The notes beneath the pieces were generated by a model. The model had not been told where the DNA came from. It ran no database searches and was given only the letters and a program-made list of their open reading frames with translations. This document shows, one piece after another, positions 1,295-21,392 of a DNA stretch of 32,000 nucleotides (its first letter is position 1; the number at the start of each line of letters is the position of its first letter). This DNA is from Bellilinea caldifistulae (lineage in GTDB: Bacteria; Chloroflexota; Anaerolineae; Anaerolineales; Anaerolineaceae). The position numbers and the translations under genes were made by a program. The stretch spans positions 1 through 32,000 of the forward strand of contig NZ_LGHJ01000014.1 of the NCBI RefSeq assembly GCF_001306055.1, read 5' to 3'.

Positions 1295-2773
1295 TCAACT
1301 GGCTGCCAGCCAGGCCACTCCCACCAACCCCGGCCCGGCGTGAGCGCCGATGACCGGCGTCATTTCGGTGATGTAGAGTTCGGTTGGGTTTAATTTATCT
1401 TGCAGGATTTGCGCCATTTGTTCTGCACAGGCCGCATCATCCGCGTGGAAGCAGATCAGCACACTGCCTTTGGCTTTAAGATTTTTTTCCAGCCAGGTCA
1501 CCATGCGTTCGATTGCCTTTCGGCGGGTACGTTCCATCCCTTCCAGTCGAATCTGGCCATCGCGCAGGGTGAGAATGGGGTACACCCGCAGAGCCGCGTT
1601 GAGGAGCGGACGAATGGCATTGACCCGTCCGCTGTGTTCCACGAAGGAGAGGGTATCCAGCACCCCGATCATCCCAACCTGCTGACGGGCTTCGTTAAGC
1701 GCGGTTTTAATTTTTTCCAAAGAAGCTCCCTGCCGGGCAAGACGGGCTGCCAAAATCGCCATCAAACCCTGTGCCGGGCCGGCAACCCCGCAGTCAACCA
1801 CCTCGACTTTCAACTGTTCCGCCAGTTGTTCGGCGGCTAAACGGGCAGAGTTGTAGCATTGAGTCAGGTCGGCAGGCGGAGTCAGCACCAGCGCAGCCGA
1901 AGCTTTGCCGTCCAATGCCTGCATGGCGCTGAGAAATTCACCGGGGGAGGGGGCTGCTGTGGTGGGGCGGGTGTGGGTGGTGCGTAGGGTTTGATAGTAT
2001 GCCCGCCGGTCAATGGTCTCATCATCGGGCAGAGCCTTTCCGTCCAGGATCAAACTCATAGGAATAATGTGGATGCCTTCCCGCTTTGCCAGTTCATCCG
2101 GCAGAGAGGCGATGCTGTCGGTAAAAATAGCCGGTGCAGTCTTGGCCAGCGGACGGGGGGAATAAGCCGGGAATAAATCCACCAGAATTTGCCGTTTGTC
2201 GCTCAGTTTCAGCCAACGCGGCAGCAAGCGCGGAATGGAACACACCGCCGTGGTGAACGCCATGATCAACGGCGACCAGATGACCAACGGATGCAGGTCG
2301 CGCAGGTAGTTCAAGTAGATAAGCAAAGGAAAGGCAACCAGGGTTGCCAGAATACCGCTACCCAGCGTCGCAAAGTAAACCAATCCATAAACCGGTAAGG
2401 CGATCAAAGTTGGAGCGGGGGTCAATGCCAGCAGCCCGCCTAATGAAGTGGCCAGCCCGCGCCCGCCTTTGAAACGGAAGTAAACCGGGTAGTTGTGCCC
2501 CACAACGGCGGCTACCACACAAAAGACGGCACAACCTTCACCCAGCAGAAGGATGCGGGCGACTACTACCGGCAGGCTTCCTTTGGCAATGTCCAGTAAG
2601 GCAACAAATGCAGCGGGAACTAATCCCACTGAACGAGCCACATTGGCTGTACCTGCGTTTCCATCCCCCAGCGAACGGATGTCGGTTCTCTTCCACAATC
2701 GGGTGATCAAAACTGCTGAAGAAACCGACCCCAGCAAATAACTGAAAATCATGGCGAGCACACACTGCAACAT
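1295..2773 (-). CDS. plsY: Fusion protein: PlsY (acyl-phosphate:glycerol-3-phosphate acyltransferase) N-terminal domain plus DegV/FakB-family fatty-acid-binding C-terminal domain
   Basis: The N-terminal ~195 aa are polytopic and carry PlsY motifs GDGNAGTANV and GHNYPVYFRFKGGRGLAT. The C-terminal ~290 aa carry DegV motifs IFTDSIASLPDEL, TTAAPSPGEF, HSGRVN and IGAHAGPG. The frame is single and uninterrupted. The SD AGGAGGTGG ends 4 nt before ATG 2773. Confidence 0.9.
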   Translation of the reverse strand: MLQCVLAMIFSYLLGSVSSAVLITRLWKRTDIRSLGDGNAGTANVARSVGLVPAAFVALLDIAKGSLPVVVARILLLGEGCAVFCVVAAVVGHNYPVYFRFKGGRGLATSLGGLLALTPAPTLIALPVYGLVYFATLGSGILATLVAFPLLIYLNYLRDLHPLVIWSPLIMAFTTAVCSIPRLLPRWLKLSDKRQILVDLFPAYSPRPLAKTAPAIFTDSIASLPDELAKREGIHIIPMSLILDGKALPDDETIDRRAYYQTLRTTHTRPTTAAPSPGEFLSAMQALDGKASAALVLTPPADLTQCYNSARLAAEQLAEQLKVEVVDCGVAGPAQGLMAILAARLARQGASLEKIKTALNEARQQVGMIGVLDTLSFVEHSGRVNAIRPLLNAALRVYPILTLRDGQIRLEGMERTRRKAIERMVTWLEKNLKAKGSVLICFHADDAACAEQMAQILQDKLNPTELYITEMTPVIGAHAGPGLVGVAWLAAS

Positions 2774-2846
2774 CGGTCCACCTCCTTCCTGTGTTTTACC
2801 TGAGGAGAAGCCGGGCTCAATGCGGTTGCTCGAAATCCTTAATTCG

Positions 2847-2896: not shown

Positions 2897-3142
2897 TCAG
2901 GGCAAGGTTGAATCGAAGCCTTGCGGGTAAACCGGGGCAAAAATGGGATGTACGCTCTCGGCGCGGTAGTTTGCCTGCCGTGAGGATTGGATGGCGGGCA
3001 GTGTAGAGGCCGAGGCAGGATAGATCGGCGAAAAAACCAGCACCAGCAGGGTGGTGGTGAGGATGGCTGCAATCATCAGGGTCAGAATTAATTGCAGGGT
3101 CAGCCGGACAAATGGGGTGGGGGAAGCCGTCATTATTTTCAT
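2897..3142 (-). CDS. Hypothetical small single-pass membrane protein, translationally abutted to the cyclase gene
   Basis: Its ATG (3142-3140) directly follows the cyclase TAA (3145-3143), reading TAAATG. It has one hydrophobic helix (LTLQLILTLMIAAILTTTLLVLVF). No family is recognised and there is no clear SD. ATG 3133 is an alternative start. Confidence 0.35.
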   Translation of the reverse strand: MKIMTASPTPFVRLTLQLILTLMIAAILTTTLLVLVFSPIYPASASTLPAIQSSRQANYRAESVHPIFAPVYPQGFDSTLP

Positions 3143-5377
3143 TTATAAGGTGACTTCTACCTGAGGGATTTCTCGCGGGGCAGATAGACGATAAACCATC
3201 ACTCGTTCCAGTTTTCCCTTTACCGAGTGCAGTCCCAGGGGCTCCAGGGTAAAACGCTGCTGATTTTCTTCCAATGCGGTGAAAGTGGCGTGTCCGATGA
3301 CGGCCCCGGTTCCTTTGATCAACTGGCGGGTGAGGGCTTCAAGCCGCTGGGCGGTGTTGACCGTATCGCCGATGATGGTGTAGTGCAGACGGTCTTTTGC
3401 GCCTAAACCGCCGGCGATGACCACTCCCGTGTTAATGCCGATACCAGTAATCAGGGGCGGGTCACCGCGCTGCTCGCGGATGCGGTTGAGTTCGTCAATG
3501 GCGGTGGTCATCTCCACGGCTGCCTGACAGGCCGCCAGCGCACTCTTTTTGGGGCTGAGCATACGCGGCAGAATCCCGAAGAATGCCAGCATGGCATCCC
3601 CATCAAATTTGTTGACCACCCCGCCGTGCTTGACAATGATTGGCACAATGCGGTCAAAATACTCATTGAGCCAGTTCATCACCCGTGCCGGGTCGGCCTG
3701 TTCACTCAGGGTGGTAAACCCGCGAATGTCGCTGATGAGTACGGTGGCAACGGCTTGCTGGCCTTCCAGGCGCACATTTCCGGAGCCGAAGGTCTGGCGC
3801 AGCTGCTCGCGCACCTCCGGCGAAACCGTCCGTCCCAGCAGGTCGCGGTAGATGAAACCTTCCTGCAAGCCGGCAATCATCGCGTTGAAGGCGTGCGCCA
3901 GAACGGACAACTCATCGTTCCCGTCCACACTGACTTTGACCCCTAAATTTCCCTGAGCGACCTGTGAGGTGGCCCGCACCAGCCGTAACAAGGGGCGAGT
4001 GATCAGGTTGGCTAAATAAATCCCCACCAGAATCACCAGCAGGATCGAAATGGTGATCAGCAAAAAGACCTGCAAACGGGTGATCTGGCTGGTGCGCACC
4101 AGAAAAGCCTGGGGCAGTGCCACACCCAGCACCCCCAGATCTTCTCCGCTGCGCGCTTCCCACGCCCCAAGCAGCTCGGTGTAGTTGATACCGTTGATGT
4201 CCAGCGGCCGCGACTTGCTGGCCTGATCCTGAGTTTGCAGCACTTCTAAAGCCAGTGCCGGATCGAGAGTGGGCTGAAAAGCGGGGAATGTGGAAGCAAT
4301 CCGGCGTCCGTTGAGGGTGTAGAGGGTGGTGTCGCTGAGGGTGTCCAGTTTCATCTCTCGCACCAGCGAGGCGGCCGACTTCCCGATCAGCACCACTCCC
4401 CTCAATTGACCCTCGGTGTCCAAAATCGGCCCGCTGATGTAAAAATAATCCCCCCACGGTGCCTGAACAAAGGCGGCAAACTTGTCGCCGCGGGCATCCT
4501 GTTCACGGCGTAAGACCCGCTGGACGAACGGTTGCTGGCTGAAAAATGGGTCATCCCGCGAATAGGTGTATTCACCGCGGGGTGCATCGGGCGGTCGGCG
4601 GGCAGAGAAGACCGATACCCCTTGGGTGTCCAAGATTTCGATGGCCTCCTCATTACTATTGAGGGCTAACGGCAGACTGAGCAGGCGCAGTTGTTCGGCA
4701 TCACCCGCCTGAATGGCTTCGGCAACTCCCTGGGTATTGGCGATCAGGCGCAGAGTAGCCAGCAGGCGGTCTTCTTCGCGCACCATCCAGTCGGTCGTTT
4801 GCCGTCCGGCTGCCACCAGTTGATTGAAGAAGCGGTCCTGCACCGATTCGATCACCACCTGCGTAATGATATAAGCCGAGGCCAGCGCAAATAACAATGC
4901 AAGGATCAGGTACGGGAGGGTGATTTTGAGCCTAACCGGCACCTTAACCGCCGGCGGTTGCCCTACGGGCAGCGCAACCGCGGCTGGCTGTTGGCGGGGC
5001 TGGGTAGGCACATCCACGGATTCGAGACGCCGTAATGCCTGTTCGATCCAGCGCGCCTGAAACGGCTGGCGCAGGAACACGTGAAAACCGTTCGATTTTG
5101 CCAGCATCTCGCGCTGGACATCTGGATACTGGTTGGTGAGAATGACTTTGACCTTTGGATCGGTGGCTTGAATGCGGCGCAGAAATTCCAGCCAGCCCTC
5201 ACCGGGAAAGTGCAGATCCAGCAAAATCAGGTGGGGTTTGATTTGCTTGAAGAGCGCTTCGGCCTGTCCAATTTCCCACGCCTCCCATACTTGATCGCCC
5301 CGGCTGCGAAAGTGGCGAGTCAATAACTGAGCTGGCTGAGCTTGCTGTTGAACAATGAGGACTCGCTGGGCAGGCAT
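3143..5377 (-). CDS. Receiver-like domain / two-TM extracytoplasmic sensor / HAMP / class III adenylate-guanylate cyclase
   Basis: The N-terminus has a CheY-like fold (LILLDLHFP, KVILTNQ). TM1 (LPYLILALLFALASAYIITQVVI) and TM2 (VFLLITISILLVILVGIYLANLI) flank a ~270-aa loop. The HAMP segment is ITRPLLRLVRATSQVAQGNLGVKVSV...ELSVLAHAFNAMIAGLQE. The cyclase core is VLISDIRGFTTLSE, NKFDGDAMLAFFG, GINTGVVIAGGLG and IGDTVNTAQRLE. The SD GAGGA lies 4 nt before ATG 5377, only 20 nt after the rpoD stop. Confidence 0.9.
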   Translation of the reverse strand: MPAQRVLIVQQQAQPAQLLTRHFRSRGDQVWEAWEIGQAEALFKQIKPHLILLDLHFPGEGWLEFLRRIQATDPKVKVILTNQYPDVQREMLAKSNGFHVFLRQPFQARWIEQALRRLESVDVPTQPRQQPAAVALPVGQPPAVKVPVRLKITLPYLILALLFALASAYIITQVVIESVQDRFFNQLVAAGRQTTDWMVREEDRLLATLRLIANTQGVAEAIQAGDAEQLRLLSLPLALNSNEEAIEILDTQGVSVFSARRPPDAPRGEYTYSRDDPFFSQQPFVQRVLRREQDARGDKFAAFVQAPWGDYFYISGPILDTEGQLRGVVLIGKSAASLVREMKLDTLSDTTLYTLNGRRIASTFPAFQPTLDPALALEVLQTQDQASKSRPLDINGINYTELLGAWEARSGEDLGVLGVALPQAFLVRTSQITRLQVFLLITISILLVILVGIYLANLITRPLLRLVRATSQVAQGNLGVKVSVDGNDELSVLAHAFNAMIAGLQEGFIYRDLLGRTVSPEVREQLRQTFGSGNVRLEGQQAVATVLISDIRGFTTLSEQADPARVMNWLNEYFDRIVPIIVKHGGVVNKFDGDAMLAFFGILPRMLSPKKSALAACQAAVEMTTAIDELNRIREQRGDPPLITGIGINTGVVIAGGLGAKDRLHYTIIGDTVNTAQRLEALTRQLIKGTGAVIGHATFTALEENQQRFTLEPLGLHSVKGKLERVMVYRLSAPREIPQVEVTL

Positions 5378-9438: not shown

Positions 9439-12400
9439 TTAGAAGCCTTCCAGACGTGAGAAGTCAGCCACGCCGCGTGCCAATCCGGCAATCCGTTGTA
9501 ACATCCCCAGACGGTTGGCGCGTTGAACAGCATCCTCCGACATCACCAGCACTTCGTCAAAGAAGTGGTTGATCACCGGAATCATGGGCAGGAAGACGTT
9601 AAAGAAATCCTCAACCGAGCCGCTGCGGCGCGGGGTGGTTTCGGCTTGCAGCAGGGCGCTGAGCAAGGCCTTTTCGGCGTCCTCAACCAGCGCGTCTGGT
9701 TCGATGGAGAAAGTTTCCTGCTGATCGCGGGTGATGCGTACACAACGGGCGTAGGCCGGTAAAATCCGGTTCCAATCCTCGCGCTGCACCCATTGCTGCA
9801 GTTGCTGAACAGCGCGGAAAGCGGCCGCCGGATTGTGACCCTGCTCTGCCAGCACGGCGGCAATCACATCGTAGCGATAGCCTTCTTCCAGCAGGTAGCT
9901 TTGCAAGCGCCCGATGATGAACTCCAGACAGGTTTGCAGGCTTTCGGGACTGGCGGGGATGGGCAGTCCCTTGGCGGCGGCTTGTAGCCCGGCTCGCAGG
10001 TCAAAATCCAGATTCCAGTGAATCAGGTTTTGTACCAATCCCAGGGCAGCCCGACGCTGAGCAAAGGGGTCTTTGGTTCCGGAAGGGGCTAATCCGGCAG
10101 CAAACAGTCCGGCGAGCGTGTCCAGCCGGTCGGCCATACCGACCAGCAGGCCAGCCGGCGATTGCGGATAATCGTCCCCGGCGTAGCGCGGTAGGTACGA
10201 TTCAAAGATGGCCTGGGCAACGGCGGGAGACTCGCCGCTGTGCAGCGCGTAATAGCGTCCCATCAGCCCTTGCAGGCTGGTCATTTCGATGACCATGTTG
10301 GTGACCAGGTCGGCTTTGCACAGGTGAGCGGCACGGCGAGCGGCAGCTGCCTGTTCGTCCTTCAATCCGACTGTGGAAATCAATTGCTCCACCAGCCTTT
10401 CGATCCGCTGGGTTTTATCCAGCATCGAACCCAGTTTGACTTGAAAAGTGAGGGTGTGCAGGCGGGGCAGGAAGGCTTCCAGCGGTTGTTTCAGGTCTTC
10501 CTGAATGAAAAAGGCTGCATCGGCAAAGCGGGCGCGGATGACCTGCTCGTTGCCGTCCACCACCACTTCCTTAAAACGTTCATCCCCATTGCGGATGACG
10601 ATAAAGTAAGGTAAGAGACTGCCATCCGTTTTGTAAACCGGGAAGTAACGCTGGTACTTCTTCATCACCGAAATCAGCACTTCTGCCGGTAATTGGAGAT
10701 GGGCTTCGTCGAATGACCCGCGCAATGCGGCAGGCGCTTCCACCAGACCGGTGACTTCGTCCAGCAGGTTTTCATCCAGATGAGCCGGGTCTCCCCCGCA
10801 TTCGGCAATCAATTGCTCCGCCTGTCGGCGGATGCTGGCGCGCCGTTCCTGCGGGTCGAGCAGGATACCCTGACTGGCGAGGAACTCCAAATAGGCCGAA
10901 ACGCCGGTGATTTCGGTGGTTTCCGGCTGGCGAAAGCGCAGCCCGCGGGTCTGGTTGCCGCTGGTCAAACCGGCATACTGGAACGGGATGACCTGATCAT
11001 CCAACAATGCCAGCAGCCAGCGGATGGGGCGGGAAAAACTCACCCCGGATTGGTTCCAGCGCATGGATTTGGTGAAACTGAGTGAGTCAATCAACGGGGG
11101 TAGAGCGGGGGCCAGAACTTCAACGGCCGGCTTACCGGCTTCAAAGACGCGCGCAATGGCATATTGACCGCCGTCCATTTCCGCTACCTGCAATTGACTG
11201 ACATCCAGACCGCGGCTGCGGGCAAACCCGATGGCGGCCGGGGTGGGGTTGCCGTTTTGATCAAAAGCGCGCTGAGCAGGCGGCCCTTTGACCACTGTTT
11301 CGCGGTCAGTTTGACGGTCTGCCAGATCCTCCACAATGACGGTTAAACGGCGCGGTGTACCCAGAACATGCACCTTGCCGTGGGTCAGGCGTAATTCTTC
11401 CAGCAATTGCGGAACGCGCTGCTGCAATTGGCTCAGGGCATCCTCCAAATCGCCGGCGGGAAGTTCCTCTGTGCCGATTTCCAGCAGGAAGCTGGCCGGC
11501 CGGCTGAGAGGACGGGGTGCAGCGGAGGGGGCTGCCGCAATGTCAGCCGAAGAGGGCTGGCTTTTGCCGGTTAGCATGGGGTATCCAAGCCGTTCGCGCT
11601 GTTCCAGATAGGCGCGCGCCACTTTGGCCGAAAGGTCACGCATGCGCGCGAACATGGCAGCTCGCTCGGTCACGCCGACCGCCCCGCGGGTATCCAGGAT
11701 ATTGAAGGTGTGGGAGCATTTCAGCACATAATCATGGGCGGGAAGAACCAACCCGTGTTCGAGTGCGTTGAGCGCTTCGGCTTCGAACAGGCTCATCATC
11801 TGGCGTGCCCGTTCGACATCGGCGATTTCGAAGTAGTACTTGCTGTGTTCCTGTTCGCCCTGCAGATTCACATCCCCATAAGTGCGTTCCGGGCTCCAGC
11901 GAATATCGCGGAAATTACGCACTTTTTGCAGCGCCATGGCAATTCGTTCCAGCCCGTAGGTAATTTCCACCGAAACCGGATCCAGCACAATTCCGCCGGC
12001 CTGCTGGAAGTAAGTGAACTGGGTGATTTCCTGCCCATCCAGCCAGACTTCCCAACCCAGCCCCCAGGCGCCCAGCGCCGGGGATTCCCAGTTATCCTCG
12101 ACGAAGCGGATATCGTGTTGATCGGGATCAATGCCCAGCGCTTGCAGAGATTGGAGGTAAATCTCCTGCGGGTTGCCGGGGTCTGGTTTGAGGATGACCT
12201 GGAACTGGTAGTGCTGCTGCAAGCGGTTGGGGTTTTCGCCGTAGCGCCCATCGTCCGGGCGGACGGATGGTTCGACATAGGCTACTTTCCAGGGCTCCGG
12301 GCCGAGAACCCGCAGAAAAGTTGCCGGGTTGTAGGTACCGGCACCGACCTGTGTGTAATAGGGTTGCCAGATCAGGCAACCCTGTTCGGCCCAAAAGCGC

Positions 12401-12444
12401 TGCAAATTCATGATGATGGTTTGGAAATCGAGCGGTTCAGACAT
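9439..12444 (-). CDS. glyQS: Glycine--tRNA ligase, fused alpha (GlyQ) and beta (GlyS) subunits
   Basis: The N-terminal ~290 aa are GlyQ ([71 protein letters not shown]). A ~28-aa Ser/Pro/Ala linker follows. GlyS starts at [13 protein letters not shown] chose ATG 12444 as the start because GGAG lies 5 nt upstream. The track start at 12450 is a GTG two codons earlier. Confidence 0.95.
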
Positions 12445-12479
12445 GCGCACTCCACAAAACGGGTTGAGATTGCCAACCG

Positions 12480-15782: not shown

Positions 15783-15870
15783 ATTGCGCTGTATCCTATT
15801 CAACAGGGGGCGGTTAATTTACCCTGTCGGCTGGCAGGATTCCAACATCTTTTCAGGAGGCGAGGGAAAC

Positions 15871-16635
15871 ATGCGGTTAAAGGATAAGGTGTGTCTGATA
15901 ACGGGAGGCGCAGCCGGAATCGGGAAAGCCACAGCCCAGCGTTTTGCTGAGGAAGGGGCCATTGTGGTGATTTGCGATGTCAACCGTGAAGCCGGCGAAG
16001 CCCTGGTAAAGGAGCTTGGGGAACCAGCCTGCTTTTACGCGGTCAATGTCGCCGACCGGGCTGAGGTGCAGGCCTGGGTTGACGACGTGGTGCGTCGTTT
16101 TGGGCGGGTAGATGTGCTGGTCAACAATGCCGGTATCACCCGCGATGCGCTCTTCGTCAAGGTCAAAGACGGTGAACTGGTTAAGCAGATGGAAGAAAGC
16201 GCCTTTGATCAGGTGATTGACATCAACCTCAAAGGGGTCTTCAATTGCGCCCAGGCAGTTGCTCCGTTCATGATTCGGCAGGGCGGTGGCGTGATCCTCA
16301 ATGCCTCTTCGGTGGTGGGTCTGTACGGCAACGTCGGTCAGACCAATTATGTTGCCACCAAAGCCGGGGTGATTGGGATGACGAAGGTGTGGGCGCGGGA
16401 ATTGGGACGGTACAATATCCGTGTCAATGCGGTGGCACCCGGTTTCATTGCCACCGAAATGGTGCAAAAGATGCCCGAAGAGATCTTAGCCGGTATGAAA
16501 GCCAAGACCCCGCTTGGCCGGCTGGGAGATCCGCGCGATATTGCCAATGCCTATCTCTGGCTGGCCAGTGATGAGGCCAGTTTTGTGCATGGCGCCACCA
16601 TCAGTGTGGATGGCGGTATTGTGATGGGTACATAA
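15871..16635 (+). CDS. Short-chain dehydrogenase/reductase, FabG-like 3-oxoacyl/3-hydroxyacyl (CoA or ACP) oxidoreductase
   Basis: The cofactor-binding motif is TGGAAGIGKA, and NNAG is present. The catalytic Ser is in ASSVVG and the catalytic Tyr/Lys in YVATK. An SD-like AGGAGG is at 15856-15861. This is an internal ATG of ORF 15784..16635. Confidence 0.9.
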   Translation: MRLKDKVCLITGGAAGIGKATAQRFAEEGAIVVICDVNREAGEALVKELGEPACFYAVNVADRAEVQAWVDDVVRRFGRVDVLVNNAGITRDALFVKVKDGELVKQMEESAFDQVIDINLKGVFNCAQAVAPFMIRQGGGVILNASSVVGLYGNVGQTNYVATKAGVIGMTKVWARELGRYNIRVNAVAPGFIATEMVQKMPEEILAGMKAKTPLGRLGDPRDIANAYLWLASDEASFVHGATISVDGGIVMGT

Positions 16636-16673
16636 AGCCCATCCATTCTTTGAAAAGGAGGTTGAAAAAGGAT

Positions 16674-17660
16674 ATGTCTCGATTTGCTACCATCATTGGA
16701 ACGGGTCACTATCTGCCGCCAATTGAACGCCCTAACCGGGAAATGCGCGAGCGTTTCGGCGAAGTGATTGATAAGTTCGAAGCCTCGTCTGGCATTACCA
16801 CCCGCTGGTACGCCCCGGATGACTGGGTAACCTCGGATCTGGCGGTAGAAGCTGCGCGGGAGGCATTGAAAGACGCCGGCATCCAGGCCGAGGATCTGGA
16901 CATGATCATTCTGGGCACCGACAGCCCCGACTACATTACCCCGGCCACCTCGGTGGTCGTTCAGCACAAATTGGGGGCCGTCAAGGCCGGCACATTTGAT
17001 ATTGGATGTGCGTGTGCGTCGTTTCCTACCGGCCTGAACATCGCTGCCGGATTGCTGGCAACCTCTTACCAGATGAAATATGTGCTGGTGGTGGGTGCTT
17101 ATATGATGCACAAATTGTGCGACTGGCAAAATGATGTGATGTCCTTCTTCTACGGCGATGGGGCCGGTGCCGCGGTATTGACCTATTCGGATAAGCCGGG
17201 TTTCATCAGCTCAACCTTCTTTGCGGATGGTTCTTACCACAAACATTGGGGAATTTACTCCGGTGGCACCTACGAACCGGCAACGGTGGAAAGTGTGCAG
17301 GCCGGCCGAACGCAGGTGCGCTTCATCACTCCCTTCCCGCCGGAGGTCAATAACGAGGGCTGGCCGAAGCGGATGCGCGAACTGGCCGCCAACGGCAATT
17401 TTGACCTGCAGGATGTGGACATGGCGCTGTACACTCAGGTGCGCCTGAACAGCATCAAACTGGTGCAGGAAACCCTCGGTCTGCCGCTGGAAAAGACCCA
17501 CTGGATCATGGATAAATGGGGCTATACCGGTTCGGCTTGCATTCCAATGGTGTTTGATGACGCCCGTAAACAGGGCAAGATCAAATCCGGCGATCTGGTG
17601 ACCTTTGTCGGTTCGGGGGTGGGCTACAATCAGGCCGGTTCAGCCTTCATTATGCCCTGA
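16674..17660 (+). CDS. KAS III (FabH)-fold protein with a degenerate catalytic triad (Cys retained; His and Asn replaced)
   Basis: FabH-like blocks are DIGCACASF (Cys114), FYGDGAGAAVL and a C-terminal GSGVGYNQAGSAF. The HQAN block reads YTQVR (His to Thr254). The GNTSAAS block reads GYTGSAC (Asn to Tyr284). The SD AAGGAGG is at 16654-16660. ATG 16674 is preferred over TTG 16650. Confidence 0.85.
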   Translation: MSRFATIIGTGHYLPPIERPNREMRERFGEVIDKFEASSGITTRWYAPDDWVTSDLAVEAAREALKDAGIQAEDLDMIILGTDSPDYITPATSVVVQHKLGAVKAGTFDIGCACASFPTGLNIAAGLLATSYQMKYVLVVGAYMMHKLCDWQNDVMSFFYGDGAGAAVLTYSDKPGFISSTFFADGSYHKHWGIYSGGTYEPATVESVQAGRTQVRFITPFPPEVNNEGWPKRMRELAANGNFDLQDVDMALYTQVRLNSIKLVQETLGLPLEKTHWIMDKWGYTGSACIPMVFDDARKQGKIKSGDLVTFVGSGVGYNQAGSAFIMP

Positions 17661-17673
17661 TGGCAGGAGGAGT

Positions 17674-19038
17674 ATGAATCCCGCTGAAGTCTATAAAAGT
17701 AAATTGATCTCCATCCCCGAGGCGGTCAGCCTTGTTCAATCTCACCAGACGATTGGGGTGGCGATTGCTGCTTCGGAGCCGCCAGGATTGTTGAGCGAAT
17801 TGGGCAATCACAAGGATCGCCTGGAAGATGTGACGGTGTGGGTGTGCCTGCCCTTACGGGCGTATGAATATGCTACCAACCCGGAGATGGCTGGCCACTT
17901 CTTTGTGGAAAACTGGTTTTATGGCGCGCCGGATCGCAAAGTTCACCCGCAGGGGCGCATGTCTTACATCCCCAATAATCTGCACCGTGCCTCGACCGAT
18001 AAATTGCTTGCCAGTGGCGGCAAAGTCAACATCTTTTGGGGAACGGCTACCCCGCCTGACTCGCGCGGCTATCTTTCGCTTTCTCTGGGGCTGGTTATCG
18101 AAAAACAATTGATGGAAGCCGCCGATCTGGTCGTTTTGGAAATCAACGAAAACCTGCCGTATACCCTCGGCGATACGCAGGTGCACATTTCGGAAGTGGA
18201 TTATGTTGTAGAAAACCATGTGCCGTTGTTTGAACTGCCTCCTGCTCCGCCAAGCGAAGCCGAACAGGCGATTGGCGGTTATATTGCCGATTTGATTCAA
18301 GACGGTTCCACGCTACAACTGGGCATCGGCGGCATCCCCAATGCCATTACTCCCTTCCTGATGAACCGCCGGGATCTGGGCATTCATACCGAGATGTTTA
18401 CAGATGGCATGGTGGATTTGTACGAAGCCGGGGTGGTGACTAACCGCCGAAAAACGCTCTGGAAAGGCAAAATGGTGGGGGCATTTGCGCTGGGCACCCG
18501 CAAGCTGTATGACTTTGTGGATCGCAATCTGGGGGTGGAGTTTCAGCAGGGCAAAGTGACCAACGATCCGTTTGTGATTGGCCAGAACTACCGCATGATC
18601 AGTGTCAATACCGCCTTGCAGGTAGATTTGTTCGGACAGGTCTGCTCGCAAAGCATCGGTTATCGCCATTTCAGCGGAACGGGCGGACAACTGGACACGC
18701 ACCGCGGCGCACAGCTTTCCCCCGGTGGACGCGGAATCATTGCCCTGCGCTCCACAGCGCGGGATGGACAGATTTCGACGATTGTACCCATCCTCTCGGA
18801 AGGCGCCGAAGTGACTGTGCCCAGTCAGGATGTGGATACGATTGTGACCGAGTACGGGGTGGCCGAACTACGCGGGCGCTGTGTGCGCGATCGCATGGAA
18901 GCCCTGATACGGATTGCCCACCCCGACTTTCGCGAGTGGCTGCGCGAGGAAGCCCACCGGCTGGGGATTGTCCCCCGCCTGGTTGTGCCGGGGGTGCGCC
19001 TTGCTGAACAAGAAGCCAGACCATCATCCGATTCATAA
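17674..19038 (+). CDS. Family I CoA-transferase of the acetyl-CoA hydrolase / 4-hydroxybutyrate CoA-transferase type
   Basis: The length is 454 aa. GIHTEMFTDGMVDL holds the catalytic Glu context, and FSGTGGQLD is the GGQxD motif. The SD AGGAGG sits in the 13-nt spacer after the preceding stop. Confidence 0.9.
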   Translation: MNPAEVYKSKLISIPEAVSLVQSHQTIGVAIAASEPPGLLSELGNHKDRLEDVTVWVCLPLRAYEYATNPEMAGHFFVENWFYGAPDRKVHPQGRMSYIPNNLHRASTDKLLASGGKVNIFWGTATPPDSRGYLSLSLGLVIEKQLMEAADLVVLEINENLPYTLGDTQVHISEVDYVVENHVPLFELPPAPPSEAEQAIGGYIADLIQDGSTLQLGIGGIPNAITPFLMNRRDLGIHTEMFTDGMVDLYEAGVVTNRRKTLWKGKMVGAFALGTRKLYDFVDRNLGVEFQQGKVTNDPFVIGQNYRMISVNTALQVDLFGQVCSQSIGYRHFSGTGGQLDTHRGAQLSPGGRGIIALRSTARDGQISTIVPILSEGAEVTVPSQDVDTIVTEYGVAELRGRCVRDRMEALIRIAHPDFREWLREEAHRLGIVPRLVVPGVRLAEQEARPSSDS

Positions 19039-19051
19039 ACAGGAGGAAATC

Positions 19052-20116
19052 ATGAACATGCCTCAACCTCTACCGGGTGTAACGTCGCAGATGATTCAAA
19101 CCCCGCGCCTGAACCTGCACGTTTTGACAAGCGGAGATGCGGCCGGTGTACCGGTGATCTTTCTGCATGGGAATTTTTCGGCTGCTCTTTACTGGGAGGA
19201 GACCATGCTGGCTCTGCCGGCCGGTTTTCGGGCAATTGCTCCGGATTTGCGCGGTTACGGCTGGACAGAAGATGTGCTGATCAATTCGACCCGCGGTTAC
19301 CGGGACTGGTGCGATGACCTCGCGGCTTTGATGGATGTGCTGGGTGTGGAAAAGGCGCATCTGGTGGGCTGGTCAATGGGTGCGGGCATCATTTACCGGT
19401 TTATCGGTGATTTTCCTGCCCGCGTACTGAGCGCAACCCTCATTTGTCCGGTTTCACCGTACGGTTTTGGCGGCACCAAGGGAGTAGAAGGTACGCCGTT
19501 GTTTGAGGATCATGCCGGCTCCGGCGGTGGAGTGGTCAATCAGGAATTTGTCAAGCGCATTCAGGCACAAGACCGTTCCAGTGATGACCCCAACTCCCCA
19601 CGAAATATCATCAACGCCTTTTATTATGTGCCGCCCTTCCGCGCCGCACGGGAGGAGGAATTTCTGACCGCATCCTTGATGGAAAAAACCGGCCCAGACC
19701 GTTATCCGGGAGATTTCGTTCCCTCGCCCAACTGGCCGTTCGTGGCGCCAGGGGTGCACGGGCCGGTCAATTGCTGGTCATTGAAATATCTCAAGGCGGA
19801 TGTACCGGACCTGCTGGCTGCTCAGCCAAAACCGCCTGTGCTGTGGGTGCGTGGTAGCCACGACCTGATTGTTTCGGACACCTCGTTTTTCGATATTGCC
19901 AATCTAGGCAAACTGGGGTACGTACCCGGCTGGCCGGGTGATGAGGTGGCGCCACCTCAGCCCATGTTGCAGCAAACCCGCGCTGTTCTTGAAAAATACG
20001 CGGCTGCCGGGGGGGCCTATGAGGAGCATGTCATCGAAAATACCGCCCACAGCCCGCACATCGAAAAACCGGATGTGTTTAATGCATTGTTCCACGAATT
20101 CTTGAAGAAAGCCTGA
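19052..20116 (+). CDS. Alpha/beta-fold hydrolase (Ser-Asp-His)
   Basis: IFLHGNFSAALYWEE forms the oxyanion region. The nucleophile elbow is GWSMGAG. Candidate Asp and His are in RGSHDLIV and NTAHSPHIE. The SD AGGAGG sits in a 13-nt spacer. Confidence 0.85.
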   Translation: MNMPQPLPGVTSQMIQTPRLNLHVLTSGDAAGVPVIFLHGNFSAALYWEETMLALPAGFRAIAPDLRGYGWTEDVLINSTRGYRDWCDDLAALMDVLGVEKAHLVGWSMGAGIIYRFIGDFPARVLSATLICPVSPYGFGGTKGVEGTPLFEDHAGSGGGVVNQEFVKRIQAQDRSSDDPNSPRNIINAFYYVPPFRAAREEEFLTASLMEKTGPDRYPGDFVPSPNWPFVAPGVHGPVNCWSLKYLKADVPDLLAAQPKPPVLWVRGSHDLIVSDTSFFDIANLGKLGYVPGWPGDEVAPPQPMLQQTRAVLEKYAAAGGAYEEHVIENTAHSPHIEKPDVFNALFHEFLKKA

Positions 20117-20129
20117 AGGAGAAATTTTT

Positions 20130-21392
20130 ATGAGCCAACGGAAATTAGGGCGAGGTGTGGCCGTTGTGGGTGCCGGCATGAGCAAGTTCGGCTGTTACAA
20201 CGGCATGGCCACACGGGATATCTTTGTTGAGGCTTATCGCGAAATGCTGTCCTCGGTTGACCGGGGTTTTGATCCGCATGACATTGAAGCCGTTTACATC
20301 GGCAACTACTCCGGCGATCTGTTTGAGGGTCAGGCGCACATGGCTCCACTGATGACCGATTGGGTGGGGCTTGCTCCTCGACCGGCAACCCGGGTCGAGG
20401 ATGCCTGCGCCAGCGGATCGGCGGCTCTGCGGCAAGGGATGCTGGCGGTGGCTTCCGGTTTGTACGATATGGTGATGGTTGGCGGGGTGGAGAAGATGAG
20501 TGAGCTGCCCACCGAGCGGGTAACCGATACGCTGGCAACCGCCTCGGATGTGATTTATGAGGCGGCGGTTGGTTTTACCTTCCCGGCGTTATATGCAGCC
20601 ATGGCAACTGCTTACCTGCACGAATATGGGGCCGACCCGGAAGTTTTTTTGCAGGTGGGTTACAAGAACCATGAACATGGCGCTCTGAACCCCAAAGCCC
20701 AATTCGGGCAGCGTATTCAGGAAATCATGGAAGCGCGCAAAGCCAGTGCAGCCCGCAAAGGTCTGCCCATTCCGGAGTGGAAAGATGAGTTTGAGTTTTT
20801 ACACGATCCGCGCGCCAATCCTTATATTGCCTGGCCGCTGCGGTTATACGACTGCTCACCAATTTCGGATGGGGCTGCAGTGGTCTTGCTGGTAAGTGAG
20901 GATCTTGCCCGCCGGTTCAGCGACGTACCGCTTTACATCATCGGCAGCGGGCAAGCCAGCGATGCCGCTACCCACGATCGGTCAACCCTGACCTCATTGC
21001 CGGCCGCCCGCCGGGCCGCCCGGCAGGCTTATGAGATGGCCAGAATCACCCCGCAGGATGTGGATGCGGTGGAAGTGCATGACTGCTTCACGATTGCGGA
21101 AATCATCGCCAGCGAGGATCTGGGCTTTTTTGCCCCCGGTGAGGGCTGGAAGGCAGCCGAGGACGGGGTGACTTCGTTGAAGGGAAATCGTCCGATCAAC
21201 TCTTCCGGTGGATTGAAATCCAAGGGTCATCCGGTCGGGGCTTCGGGTGTGGGGCAGGTAGTGGAGATCTGGCATCAATTGCGCGGCGAAGCGGGTGAGC
21301 GGCAGATTCCCGGCAGCCCCGCCATTGGTTTAACCCACAATGTCGGCGGCACCGGCCAGACCTGTGTGGTGAACATCTTTGAACGGAGATGA
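20130..21392 (+). CDS. SCP-x / archaeal-type thiolase (acetyl-CoA C-acyltransferase family, DUF35-partnered type)
   Basis: The N-terminus is VAVVGAGMSKFG. The nucleophile context is RVEDACASGSAAL (Cys93, nt 20406-20408). The C-terminal blocks are GGLKSKGHPVGASG and THNVGGTG. The SD AGGAG sits in a 13-nt spacer. Confidence 0.9.
   Translation: MSQRKLGRGVAVVGAGMSKFGCYNGMATRDIFVEAYREMLSSVDRGFDPHDIEAVYIGNYSGDLFEGQAHMAPLMTDWVGLAPRPATRVEDACASGSAALRQGMLAVASGLYDMVMVGGVEKMSELPTERVTDTLATASDVIYEAAVGFTFPALYAAMATAYLHEYGADPEVFLQVGYKNHEHGALNPKAQFGQRIQEIMEARKASAARKGLPIPEWKDEFEFLHDPRANPYIAWPLRLYDCSPISDGAAVVLLVSEDLARRFSDVPLYIIGSGQASDAATHDRSTLTSLPAARRAARQAYEMARITPQDVDAVEVHDCFTIAEIIASEDLGFFAPGEGWKAAEDGVTSLKGNRPINSSGGLKSKGHPVGASGVGQVVEIWHQLRGEAGERQIPGSPAIGLTHNVGGTGQTCVVNIFERR

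Follow-up and report, generated by a model that had tools for sequence, protein, structure and literature searches.

Organization of the fusion gene

The gene analyzed here lies in the first 32,000 nt of contig NZ_LGHJ01000014.1 (assembly GCF_001306055.1) of Bellilinea caldifistulae GOMI-1, a stretch referred to below as the window. On its reverse strand, at positions 1295..2773 (stop codon at 1295-1297), a single unbroken open reading frame (ORF) of 492 aa joins a PlsY-family half to a DegV/FakB half, as was proposed in an earlier note made from the letters of this DNA alone and is borne out by the ORF list and by the presence of both Pfam domains in one frame. A strong Shine-Dalgarno motif, GGAGG, read directly from the sequence at 2781..2785 of the same strand, stands 7 nt 5' of the ATG at 2773; a scan of the locus for sigma-70 promoters, which is uninformative for Chloroflexota, found none.

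The N-terminal part of the protein (aa 1-189; 2207..2773, reverse strand, as are all parts of the gene given below) is a PlsY-family domain with seven transmembrane helices (7-TM), supported by the profile PF02660 (G3P_acyltransf), by similarity to the crystal structure 5XJ5, by an AlphaFold2 (AF2) model, by Foldseek and by the ratio of nonsynonymous to synonymous substitution rates (dN/dS). The Pfam match extends over aa 11-170 and profile positions 2-149 of 164 (E 1e-36; 126.7 bits at a cutoff of 24.1). The C-terminal part (aa 215-490; 1304..2131) is a DegV/FakB-type fatty-acid-binding domain, predicted to be cytoplasmic and recognized by PF02645, by TIGR00762 (233.5 bits at a cutoff of 99.7), by PDB matches and by Foldseek; PF02645 matches aa 215-490 over the full length of the profile (E 1e-63; 215.8 bits; positions 3-279 of 280), so that the DegV domain is complete, as the earlier note had it. 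Between the two domains runs a K/R-rich linker (aa 190-214; 2132..2206) with a conserved D192-K193 pair and a hinge at aa 205-210, and the junction that had been placed near nt 2176 (~aa 199) falls inside it. The linker is of fixed length, the equivalent segment (aa 188-214) measuring 25-27 aa in 71 of 71 fusion sequences. Its mean pairwise identity is 33%, and its dN/dS exceeded that of both domains in six of eight pairs.

Reality and distribution of the fusion

Among 5.8 billion protein clusters searched, 72 further clusters contained the fusion, with 43-90% identity to the window protein and lengths of ~490-530 aa, all of them with both Pfam domains; their source labels were Bellilinea, Thermanaerothrix, Anaerolineales and Chloroflexi. 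When one genome of every prokaryotic species was scanned, the full-length fusion gene appeared in ~26 genomes, all of Anaerolineae and each time as one ORF, the cultured carriers being Thermanaerothrix daxensis GNS-1 (locus L026, 55% identity) and T. solaris 4228-RoL. At 50% identity the fusion amounts to only 3-5 clusters out of 1.84 billion representatives. Neither chance nor faulty assembly accounts for a fusion that recurs to this extent. For close relatives the dN/dS of each domain was 0.03-0.11 (Nei-Gojobori), an approximate range as dS is ~1 and near saturation; judged by these ratios, both halves are under purifying selection.

A merger of two neighboring genes by a sequencing error, i.e., an artefact of assembly or annotation, is suggested by another public assembly of GOMI-1 (GCA_001050215.2, scaffold DF967971.1), in which the locus is annotated as two genes coding for 262 aa and 226 aa. 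However, the gene is interrupted there by a run of 602 N (L102:10786-11387), which stands for just 13 nt of it, at window positions ~1976-1988, and the sequences on the two sides of this run, 10,785 nt and 1,933 nt long (12.7 kb), match the window with 100% identity. Since the flanks are identical throughout and only 13 nt are replaced, the two-gene call is an artefact of a scaffold gap and involves no frameshift; according to the genome announcement, the GOMI-1 assembly comprises 43 contigs in one scaffold of 3,698,317 bp. Besides, the ORF is unbroken in >70 clusters and in ~26 genomes of independent projects, down to 43% identity, and the length of the linker is constant across the family. 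In view of this recurrence and of the explanation found for the split call, the artefact reading was rejected, and we give it practically no credence. Nor is there a frameshift at the junction, a check that the earlier note had in mind: the orthologous ORFs of independent genomes pass through it uninterrupted.

In two cases the fusion was accompanied by related genes. The metagenome-assembled genome (MAG) CAYZIQ01 has two fusion genes, 81% mutually identical (L015:9980-11470 and L027:9959-11485), which reflect either paralogy or a mixed bin, and a third, standalone gene for a non-canonical PlsY-like protein (L015:8120-8725) located 1.3 kb upstream of one of the fusions. At another MAG locus, L024, an extra PlsY-like gene (2129-2614) is situated beside the fusion.

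The earlier note did not recall this architecture as having been described, and in this it was mistaken. Li et al. (2017; Nat Commun 8:1691) had drawn attention to PlsY-DegV ('DagV') fusions in B. caldifistulae and T. daxensis (UniProt entries A0A0P6X7I7 and A0A0P6XUK7 for the two organisms jointly), with the fused DegV 22-26% identical to FakB1/B2, and a channeling of acyl-phosphate from FakB to PlsY was proposed there, the rationale being protection of acyl-phosphate at high temperature. As the window belongs to B. caldifistulae GOMI-1 (for the link of accession to strain see PMC10937449), the organism cited by these authors, both the fusion architecture and the channeling idea were already published in 2017 for this organism. 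The fusions of that report and the window protein are alike throughout in architecture, with the same order of domains (PlsY N-terminal, DegV C-terminal); the report covered two entries and did not treat the PlsY active site, the FakA-docking residues, the spread of the fusion or the presence of FakA. A follow-up paper on the PlsY-DegV fusion was not found in the literature searched. What is newly reported here is the non-canonical pocket of the PlsY half in the published fusion; also new are the conservation of the FakB and FakA-docking residues, the predicted cytoplasmic location of DegV, the unfused plsY-like and degV neighbors and the apparently mesophilic carriers.

The last point bears on the thermal rationale. 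Bellilinea and Thermanaerothrix are thermophiles (Li et al., 2017; PMC10937449), but the fusion was also found in a MAG labelled Pelolinea, which is classed as mesophilic (PMC10937449), and in MAGs or contigs named from deep-lake, Black Sea and mine-borehole sources, whose temperature is deduced from the names only. The occurrence of the fusion in apparently mesophilic lineages weakens the thermophile rationale, and the fusion appears to be a stable feature of a single Anaerolineales lineage, not an adaptation peculiar to thermophiles.

The DegV half and its FakB-type residues

In a PDB sequence search the DegV half matched solved DegV/FakB proteins with E 1e-29 to 1e-9. In the AF2 model of the protein (mean predicted local distance difference test score, pLDDT, of 88) this half superimposed on 2DT8, 1MGP, 5UTO, 4X9X and 7W7H_E with Foldseek template modelling scores (TM-scores) of 0.84-0.90, thus displaying the two-lobed EDD fold. 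The score against the NCBIfam FakB1 equivalog NF038249, a model specific to the staphylococcal type, was 126.3 bits and remained below the cutoff of 350.

In the FakA-FakB2 complex of Streptococcus suis (PMC10848957), the carboxylate of the fatty acid is bound by T61, S93, H264 and R170 of FakB2, of which R170 is catalytically required, and L181 and R202 are required for the binding of FakA. Through an alignment with the FakB1 of Staphylococcus aureus these residues were mapped to T272, T304, H478, R383, L395 and R415 of the window protein, respectively. The carboxylate network turned out to be kept in the whole fusion family (T272, T or S at 304, H478 and R383, each in 71/71 members), and so is the FakA-docking pair (L or I at 395 in 69/71, R415 in 71/71). 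The designation of this half as FakB-like in the earlier note is therefore well founded, both sets of residues being conserved in 69-71 of the 71 members. Judged by these residues, the DegV half appears to be a functional FakB, and the invariant docking pair is the best available, though indirect, pointer to a FakA partner.

A known system close to this arrangement is that of Firmicutes (S. aureus, Streptococcus pneumoniae, S. suis), where FakA and FakB operate along with a separate PlsY. The fused DegV domain shares with it the FakB fold and all the defined residues, and the fused PlsY-family domain keeps the acyl-phosphate site as the PlsY of the Firmicutes system does. The two arrangements differ in that the FakB of Firmicutes is soluble, whereas the fused one is covalently tethered to a membrane protein, and the identity of the fused DegV to FakB1 and FakB2 is only about 21-26%.

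The PlsY half and its non-canonical pocket

The PlsY half matches the PlsY of Aquifex aeolicus (5XJ5; E 2e-22 in phmmer), with a Foldseek TM-score of 0.78 over ~200 columns. It shares with canonical PlsY (A. aeolicus, 5XJ5-5XJ9) the 7-TM fold, the equivalents of H92, N37, R45 and the G102-G103-K104-G105 loop, and the cytoplasmic position of the active-site loops; the canonical enzyme lacks the ~300-aa C-terminal extension of the fused protein. The claim that the PlsY domain is complete thus stands for the fold, with its seven helices, and fails for the details: the Pfam match ends at position 149 of 164, the score against the PlsY equivalog TIGR00023 falls below its cutoff, and motif 3 is absent.

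Three segments occupy the places of motifs 1-3. The cytoplasmic loop with motif 1, aligned to 5XJ5 without gaps (aa 29-50; 2624..2689), is remodelled: Ser35 of the A. aeolicus enzyme corresponds to D37 and Ala40-Thr41 to T42-A43, and Asn37 and Arg45 are kept as N39 and R47. The loop of motif 2, which forms the 'phosphate hole' for acyl-phosphate (aa 92-108; 2450..2500), comprises G92-H93 and G103-G104-R105-G106-L107-A108, so that His92 is kept as H93 and Lys104 is replaced by R105. At the end of TM7, where motif 3 (H-x-x-N-I-x-R-L) is expected (aa 176-189, AVCSIPRLLPRWLK; 2207..2248), the protein has conserved C178, P181 and W187, has neither His nor Asn, and offers no alignable counterpart of the His177...Asn180 motif.

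These features belong to the family as a whole. In the 71 fusion proteins position 37 is occupied by N (54), D (16) or S (1), position 43 is A in 65 and position 105 is K in 47 and R in 17, while R47 and H93 are each present in 70, G103 in 71, G104 in 69, G106 in 70 and A108 in 67. The site of motif 3 bears the conserved pattern C178-x-x-P181...W187 instead; two alignments differ there by one residue and neither supplies a catalytic His or Asn. The equivalent of His177 is C178 (C in 66/71) in one of them and T/A/S179 in the other, and in no case His, and that of Asn180 is P181 or Q/R/E182. Any H..N pair within aa 165-200 occurs in just two of the 71 fusion members, in contrast to 72 of the 126 nearest standalone PlsYs.

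The weight of these replacements follows from the study of the A. aeolicus enzyme (Li et al., 2017). Among 7,288 PlsYs, Ser35, Thr41, His177 and Asn180 are conserved in 92.5, 86.4, 91.4 and 89.1%, respectively (Table 2 of that work), and S35A, T41A and all tested substitutions of His177 and Asn180 retained no more than 7% of the activity (4.75% for T41A, at most 6.5% for His177). The hydroxyl of Thr41 binds the carbonyl of acyl-phosphate and His177 binds the 2-OH of glycerol-3-phosphate (G3P), the phosphate of which is clamped by Ser35, Arg45, Lys104 and Asn180; the phosphate hole consists of His92 and the G-G-K-G-V-A loop (Li et al., 2017). Measured against this scheme, two residues of the G3P phosphate clamp are kept in the fusion family (R47 and K/R105) and two are replaced (the equivalents of Ser35 and Asn180), i.e., the full clamp is not found. 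By residue comparison, then, the phosphate hole for acyl-phosphate is intact and one half of the residues of the G3P pocket are substituted. Acyl transfer to G3P, which the earlier note attributed to this half, was accordingly overstated, as with the equivalents of Ser35, Thr41, His177 and Asn180 replaced it is an assumption.

The remodelled pocket is not a sign of decay, since conservation in the protein is highest in the loops of motifs 1 and 2 (mean pairwise identity of 79 and 80%, respectively, vs. 58% in the DegV half and 33% in the linker) and since the pocket positions covary: D37 is combined with G/A38, T42 and R/H105 in 15 of 16 cases, and N37 goes mostly with R38 and K105.

Proteins of this kind exist also in an unfused form. 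The domain is an isolated one: in an exhaustive search only five matches below E 1e-30 were obtained with the PlsY half among the 1.84 billion representatives, namely three fusions and two standalone proteins (P0121 and P0122; 211 and 216 aa) of the same subtype, 46-50% identical to the fused domain; beyond those five the scores drop to those of ordinary PlsYs. The 126 nearest standalone PlsYs include 63 fully canonical ones and at least 14 that combine D or N at position 35, Ala at position 41 and the lack of motif 3. Such standalone non-canonical paralogues (P0121, P0122, P0124 and P0125; 'membrane protein' of the NCBIfam PRK144xx models) possess a motif 1 of the form G[DN]-x-N-A-G-x-A-N and no motif 3, as does the fused domain, and differ from it by lacking DegV; the best of the NCBIfam paralogue models match the fused PlsY half at ~100 bits, below their cutoffs.

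Topology and domain geometry

The AF2 model contains seven helices in aa 1-189, as does the crystal structure of A. aeolicus PlsY, in which the loops of motifs 1 and 2 and the entrance for G3P are cytoplasmic. In the window protein basic residues gather at the same two loops and past TM7 (7 K/R vs. 2 D/E in aa 183-216), the remaining loops of the PlsY half being short and bearing little charge. This positive-inside distribution, together with the position of the loops in the crystal, places the N-terminus of the PlsY half outside and its C-terminus in the cytoplasm, and hence predicts a cytoplasmic DegV domain, in agreement with the topology that the earlier note required. The relative orientation of the domains is not predicted by the model, because the hinge (aa 205-210) has pLDDT <50 and the predicted template modelling score (pTM) of the whole is 0.59.

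Unfused plsY-degV pairs and the genomic context

A link between the two families is also seen where their genes are separate. A plsY-like gene precedes degV in one MAG of Dehalococcoidia (L040; gap of 95 nt) and in one of Patescibacteria (L052; gap of 33 nt), tight plsY-degV-plsY triplets were found in Saccharibacteria MAGs (L066:6182-8471 and L074:10001-12122), and the reverse order, degV before the plsY-like gene, was observed in Dehalococcoidia (L030, L047) and Actinomycetota (L046, L062). These eight loci were the weaker 'full-length' matches of the genome scan, and Pfam confirmed those at L040, L074 and L046. A scan whose matches are ranked by a fused query favors loci that hold both genes, which biases the adjacency result. 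With this bias in mind, the pairs support a functional link between PlsY and DegV beyond the fusion itself, and the 'Rosetta-stone' type of connection suggested by the earlier note is supported by adjacent separate genes in Dehalococcoidia, Actinomycetota and Patescibacteria/Saccharibacteria.

The DegV-adjacent PlsY-like proteins of these other phyla are non-canonical at the positions of Ser35, Thr41 or motif 3, and both PlsY-likes of each Saccharibacteria triplet lack the canonical H-x-x-N of motif 3. Judging from the residues, either they form, together with the fused domain, a DegV-coupled subfamily with a different pocket, or such pockets still support acylation of G3P. Saccharibacteria have minimal genomes and are thought to rely on scavenged lipids. 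The minimal size of these genomes is a reason to consider that the non-canonical pockets may still serve G3P acylation.

FakA itself is common in Anaerolineae. E. coli PlsY, S. aureus FakA and B. subtilis PlsX served as probes for ORF finding only, and the FakA and PlsY matches were then validated with Pfam. The FakA probe gave 16 strong matches in 1.2 Mb of flanking sequence, all of them directly upstream of a standalone degV, in Dehalococcoidia, Ardenticatenaceae, Dormibacterota and others; three were confirmed by Pfam (Dak2 + FakA_M + FakA_C). In the clusters, searched with a Pfam-validated FakA of Ardenticatenaceae and with a profile built from six FakAs of Anaerolineae, the protein occurred in abundance in MAGs that bear the labels Anaerolineae, Anaerolineales, Ardenticatenaceae or Caldilineaceae. 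Its typical context in Anaerolineae is rpe, rpmB and asp23-fakA-degV-recG; standalone fakB genes of the class reside in these operons, unlike the fusion gene, which has no FakA gene nearby.

No conserved operon partner of the fusion gene was revealed within 5 kb of 27 fusion loci, where only genus-level synteny was observed. In about seven Anaerolineales loci a gene for a small (~175 aa) PF04060 'FeS' protein adjoins the fusion, often 13-40 nt upstream (L011:12269-12787, L016:5063-5677, L017:9443-9979, L023:8743-9945, L025:9443-9979, L082:2133-2669 and L101:427-963); it does not occur in the window. At L082 genes for thioredoxin, DsbD and CooT are found along with it, and PF04060 has no evident link to lipid metabolism.

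Upstream of the fusion gene in the window lie, on the same strand, an ORF for a 744-aa protein with response-regulator, dCache, HAMP and nucleotidyl-cyclase domains (3143-5377) and, following it with no gap, an 81-aa ORF (2897-3142) with a hydrophobic stretch and no Pfam match; this pair just upstream of the fusion is conserved in four Bellilinea-group loci (L001-L004). On the other side, convergent with the fusion gene, positions 9-1221 of the forward strand encode a protein with sigma-70 region 2 (ORF of 289 aa; 258-277 aa in public records) and then a 103-aa Cys-rich ORF (CPECREEY) with no Pfam match. The 73-nt gap between the Cys-rich ORF and the fusion gene contains no terminator-like hairpin. 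Farther away, 13 kb from the fusion, the forward strand carries a cluster of lipid/acyl-CoA-type genes (15784-21392) for an SDR/enoyl-ACP-reductase-like and a KAS III-like protein, an acetyl-CoA hydrolase/transferase, an alpha/beta hydrolase and a thiolase-like protein (Thiolase_C_1). On the reverse strand at 9439-12450 the alpha and beta parts of glycyl-tRNA synthetase (PF02091 + PF02092) share one ORF of ~1,000 aa, beside dnaG and rpoD.

Proposed function and alternative readings

The reading that we prefer, with a probability of roughly 0.55, is that of a membrane-tethered FakB that would be phosphorylated in trans by FakA and would hand its acyl-phosphate over in cis to the PlsY-family domain, which is in essence what Li et al. 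(2017) put forward for the same protein. The DegV domain would be kept by the short basic linker at the cytoplasmic side of the PlsY-family 7-TM domain and would take up free fatty acid from the cytoplasm. A separately encoded FakA would dock via R415 and L395 and phosphorylate the carboxylate held by T272, T304, R383 and H478, after which the labile acyl-phosphate would move in cis to the PlsY-family domain with its intact phosphate hole (H93, G103-G104-[K/R]105-G106). From there the acyl chain would pass to an acceptor, most simply and probably G3P, although the remodelling of the G3P pocket makes this acceptor uncertain. The partnership with FakA, the hand-off in cis and the identity of the acceptor are what we infer in this scheme.

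Several observations weigh against it. Throughout the fusion family other residues stand at the positions of Ser35, Thr41, His177 and Asn180, and the PlsY half scores 119.4 bits against TIGR00023, under the cutoff of 137.2; no biochemical report of acyl-phosphate:G3P activity of a fused member was found in the literature searched. Given the disordered hinge and the pTM of 0.59, AF2 yielded no confident interface between the domains. The window contains no fakA, as the earlier note already observed and the search of the window confirmed, and no plsX, plsC or second plsY. None of the 27 fusion loci has FakA within 10 kb, nor was PlsX or PlsC found over the same distance, the result for PlsX being a weak negative as its probe had no positive control. 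Finally, no FakA match was labelled Bellilinea or Thermanaerothrix, and none was traced to a fusion-bearing genome: P0062 and P0385 had no sample in common, and P0446 belongs to JAXHUO01 and not to JBFLVL01.

According to the main rival reading, the PlsY half would be a specialized paralogue distinct from the housekeeping G3P acyltransferase, one that keeps the acyl-phosphate site and has its acceptor pocket remodelled. It would either acylate another acceptor with acyl-phosphate formed on the attached DegV domain or serve mainly as a membrane portal or anchor for the exchange of fatty acid or acyl-phosphate between bilayer and DegV, lysophosphatidic acid being made by a canonical PlsY elsewhere in the genome. 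We regard this as rather unlikely, yet it has to be taken seriously. The four pocket replacements, side by side with the retention of the H92 and R45 equivalents and of the GGKG loop, and the TIGR00023 score agree with it, as do the existence of a standalone class with D/N35, Ala41 and no motif 3, the extra PlsY-like genes less than 2 kb from the fusion in two MAGs (L015, L024) and the equally non-canonical DegV-adjacent PlsY-likes of other phyla; a covarying pocket under purifying selection would, moreover, imply a specific, selected ligand site. However, no canonical PlsY was found in the ~20 kb examined per fusion-bearing genome, and the gene neighborhood suggests no alternative acceptor. 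The phosphate clamp keeps two of its four residues (R47 and K/R105), and the tiny genomes of Saccharibacteria have only non-canonical PlsY-likes by degV, so the loss of motif 3 may suit G3P acyltransferase activity. A broader form of the same thought is that the fused domain is not a G3P acyltransferase at all and belongs to a DegV-coupled PlsY subfamily which either acylates another acceptor from the acyl-phosphate of its own FakB domain or acts as a membrane gate for loading and unloading FakB, the DegV-adjacent non-canonical PlsY-likes of Dehalococcoidia and Patescibacteria being its unfused version; this we can offer only tentatively, as we can the accompanying idea that such a subfamily would have two covarying states of the pocket, D37/R105 and N37-R38/K105.

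It is also conceivable, and in our opinion improbable, that DegV is a regulatory sensor, which would bind fatty acid or acyl-phosphate and tune the PlsY enzyme allosterically as a feedback from lipid supply, no phosphorylation by FakA being involved. The lack of FakA near any fusion and the fixed length of the linker, as expected for a defined coupling of domains, would suit such a role, and a role as Fak substrate has not been established for all DegV proteins, a DegV of S. pyogenes with a regulatory phenotype being described in PMC10138225. On the other hand, the FakA-binding positions (L/I in 69/71, R in 71/71) and the carboxylate Arg corresponding to R170 (71/71) are conserved, and a docking pair so invariant is hard to explain in a protein that has no FakA partner, which disfavors the sensor.

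Implications

The question at stake is how PlsY, an enzyme of the membrane, receives acyl-phosphate, a labile and detergent-like compound, from FakB or PlsX. A natural protein in which FakB and PlsY are covalently joined is the cleanest handle on this transfer, and its structure would reveal the geometry of docking; this argument has been in print for the same protein since 2017, and the finding of the fusion by itself is not new. The interest that remains lies in the previously unreported non-canonical pocket, which is remodelled, covarying and apparently selected, in a protein whose FakA-docking surface is invariant. Such a pocket matters to anyone who would model canonical FakB-to-PlsY channeling on this protein, and it may point to an acceptor specificity that is new for the PlsY family.

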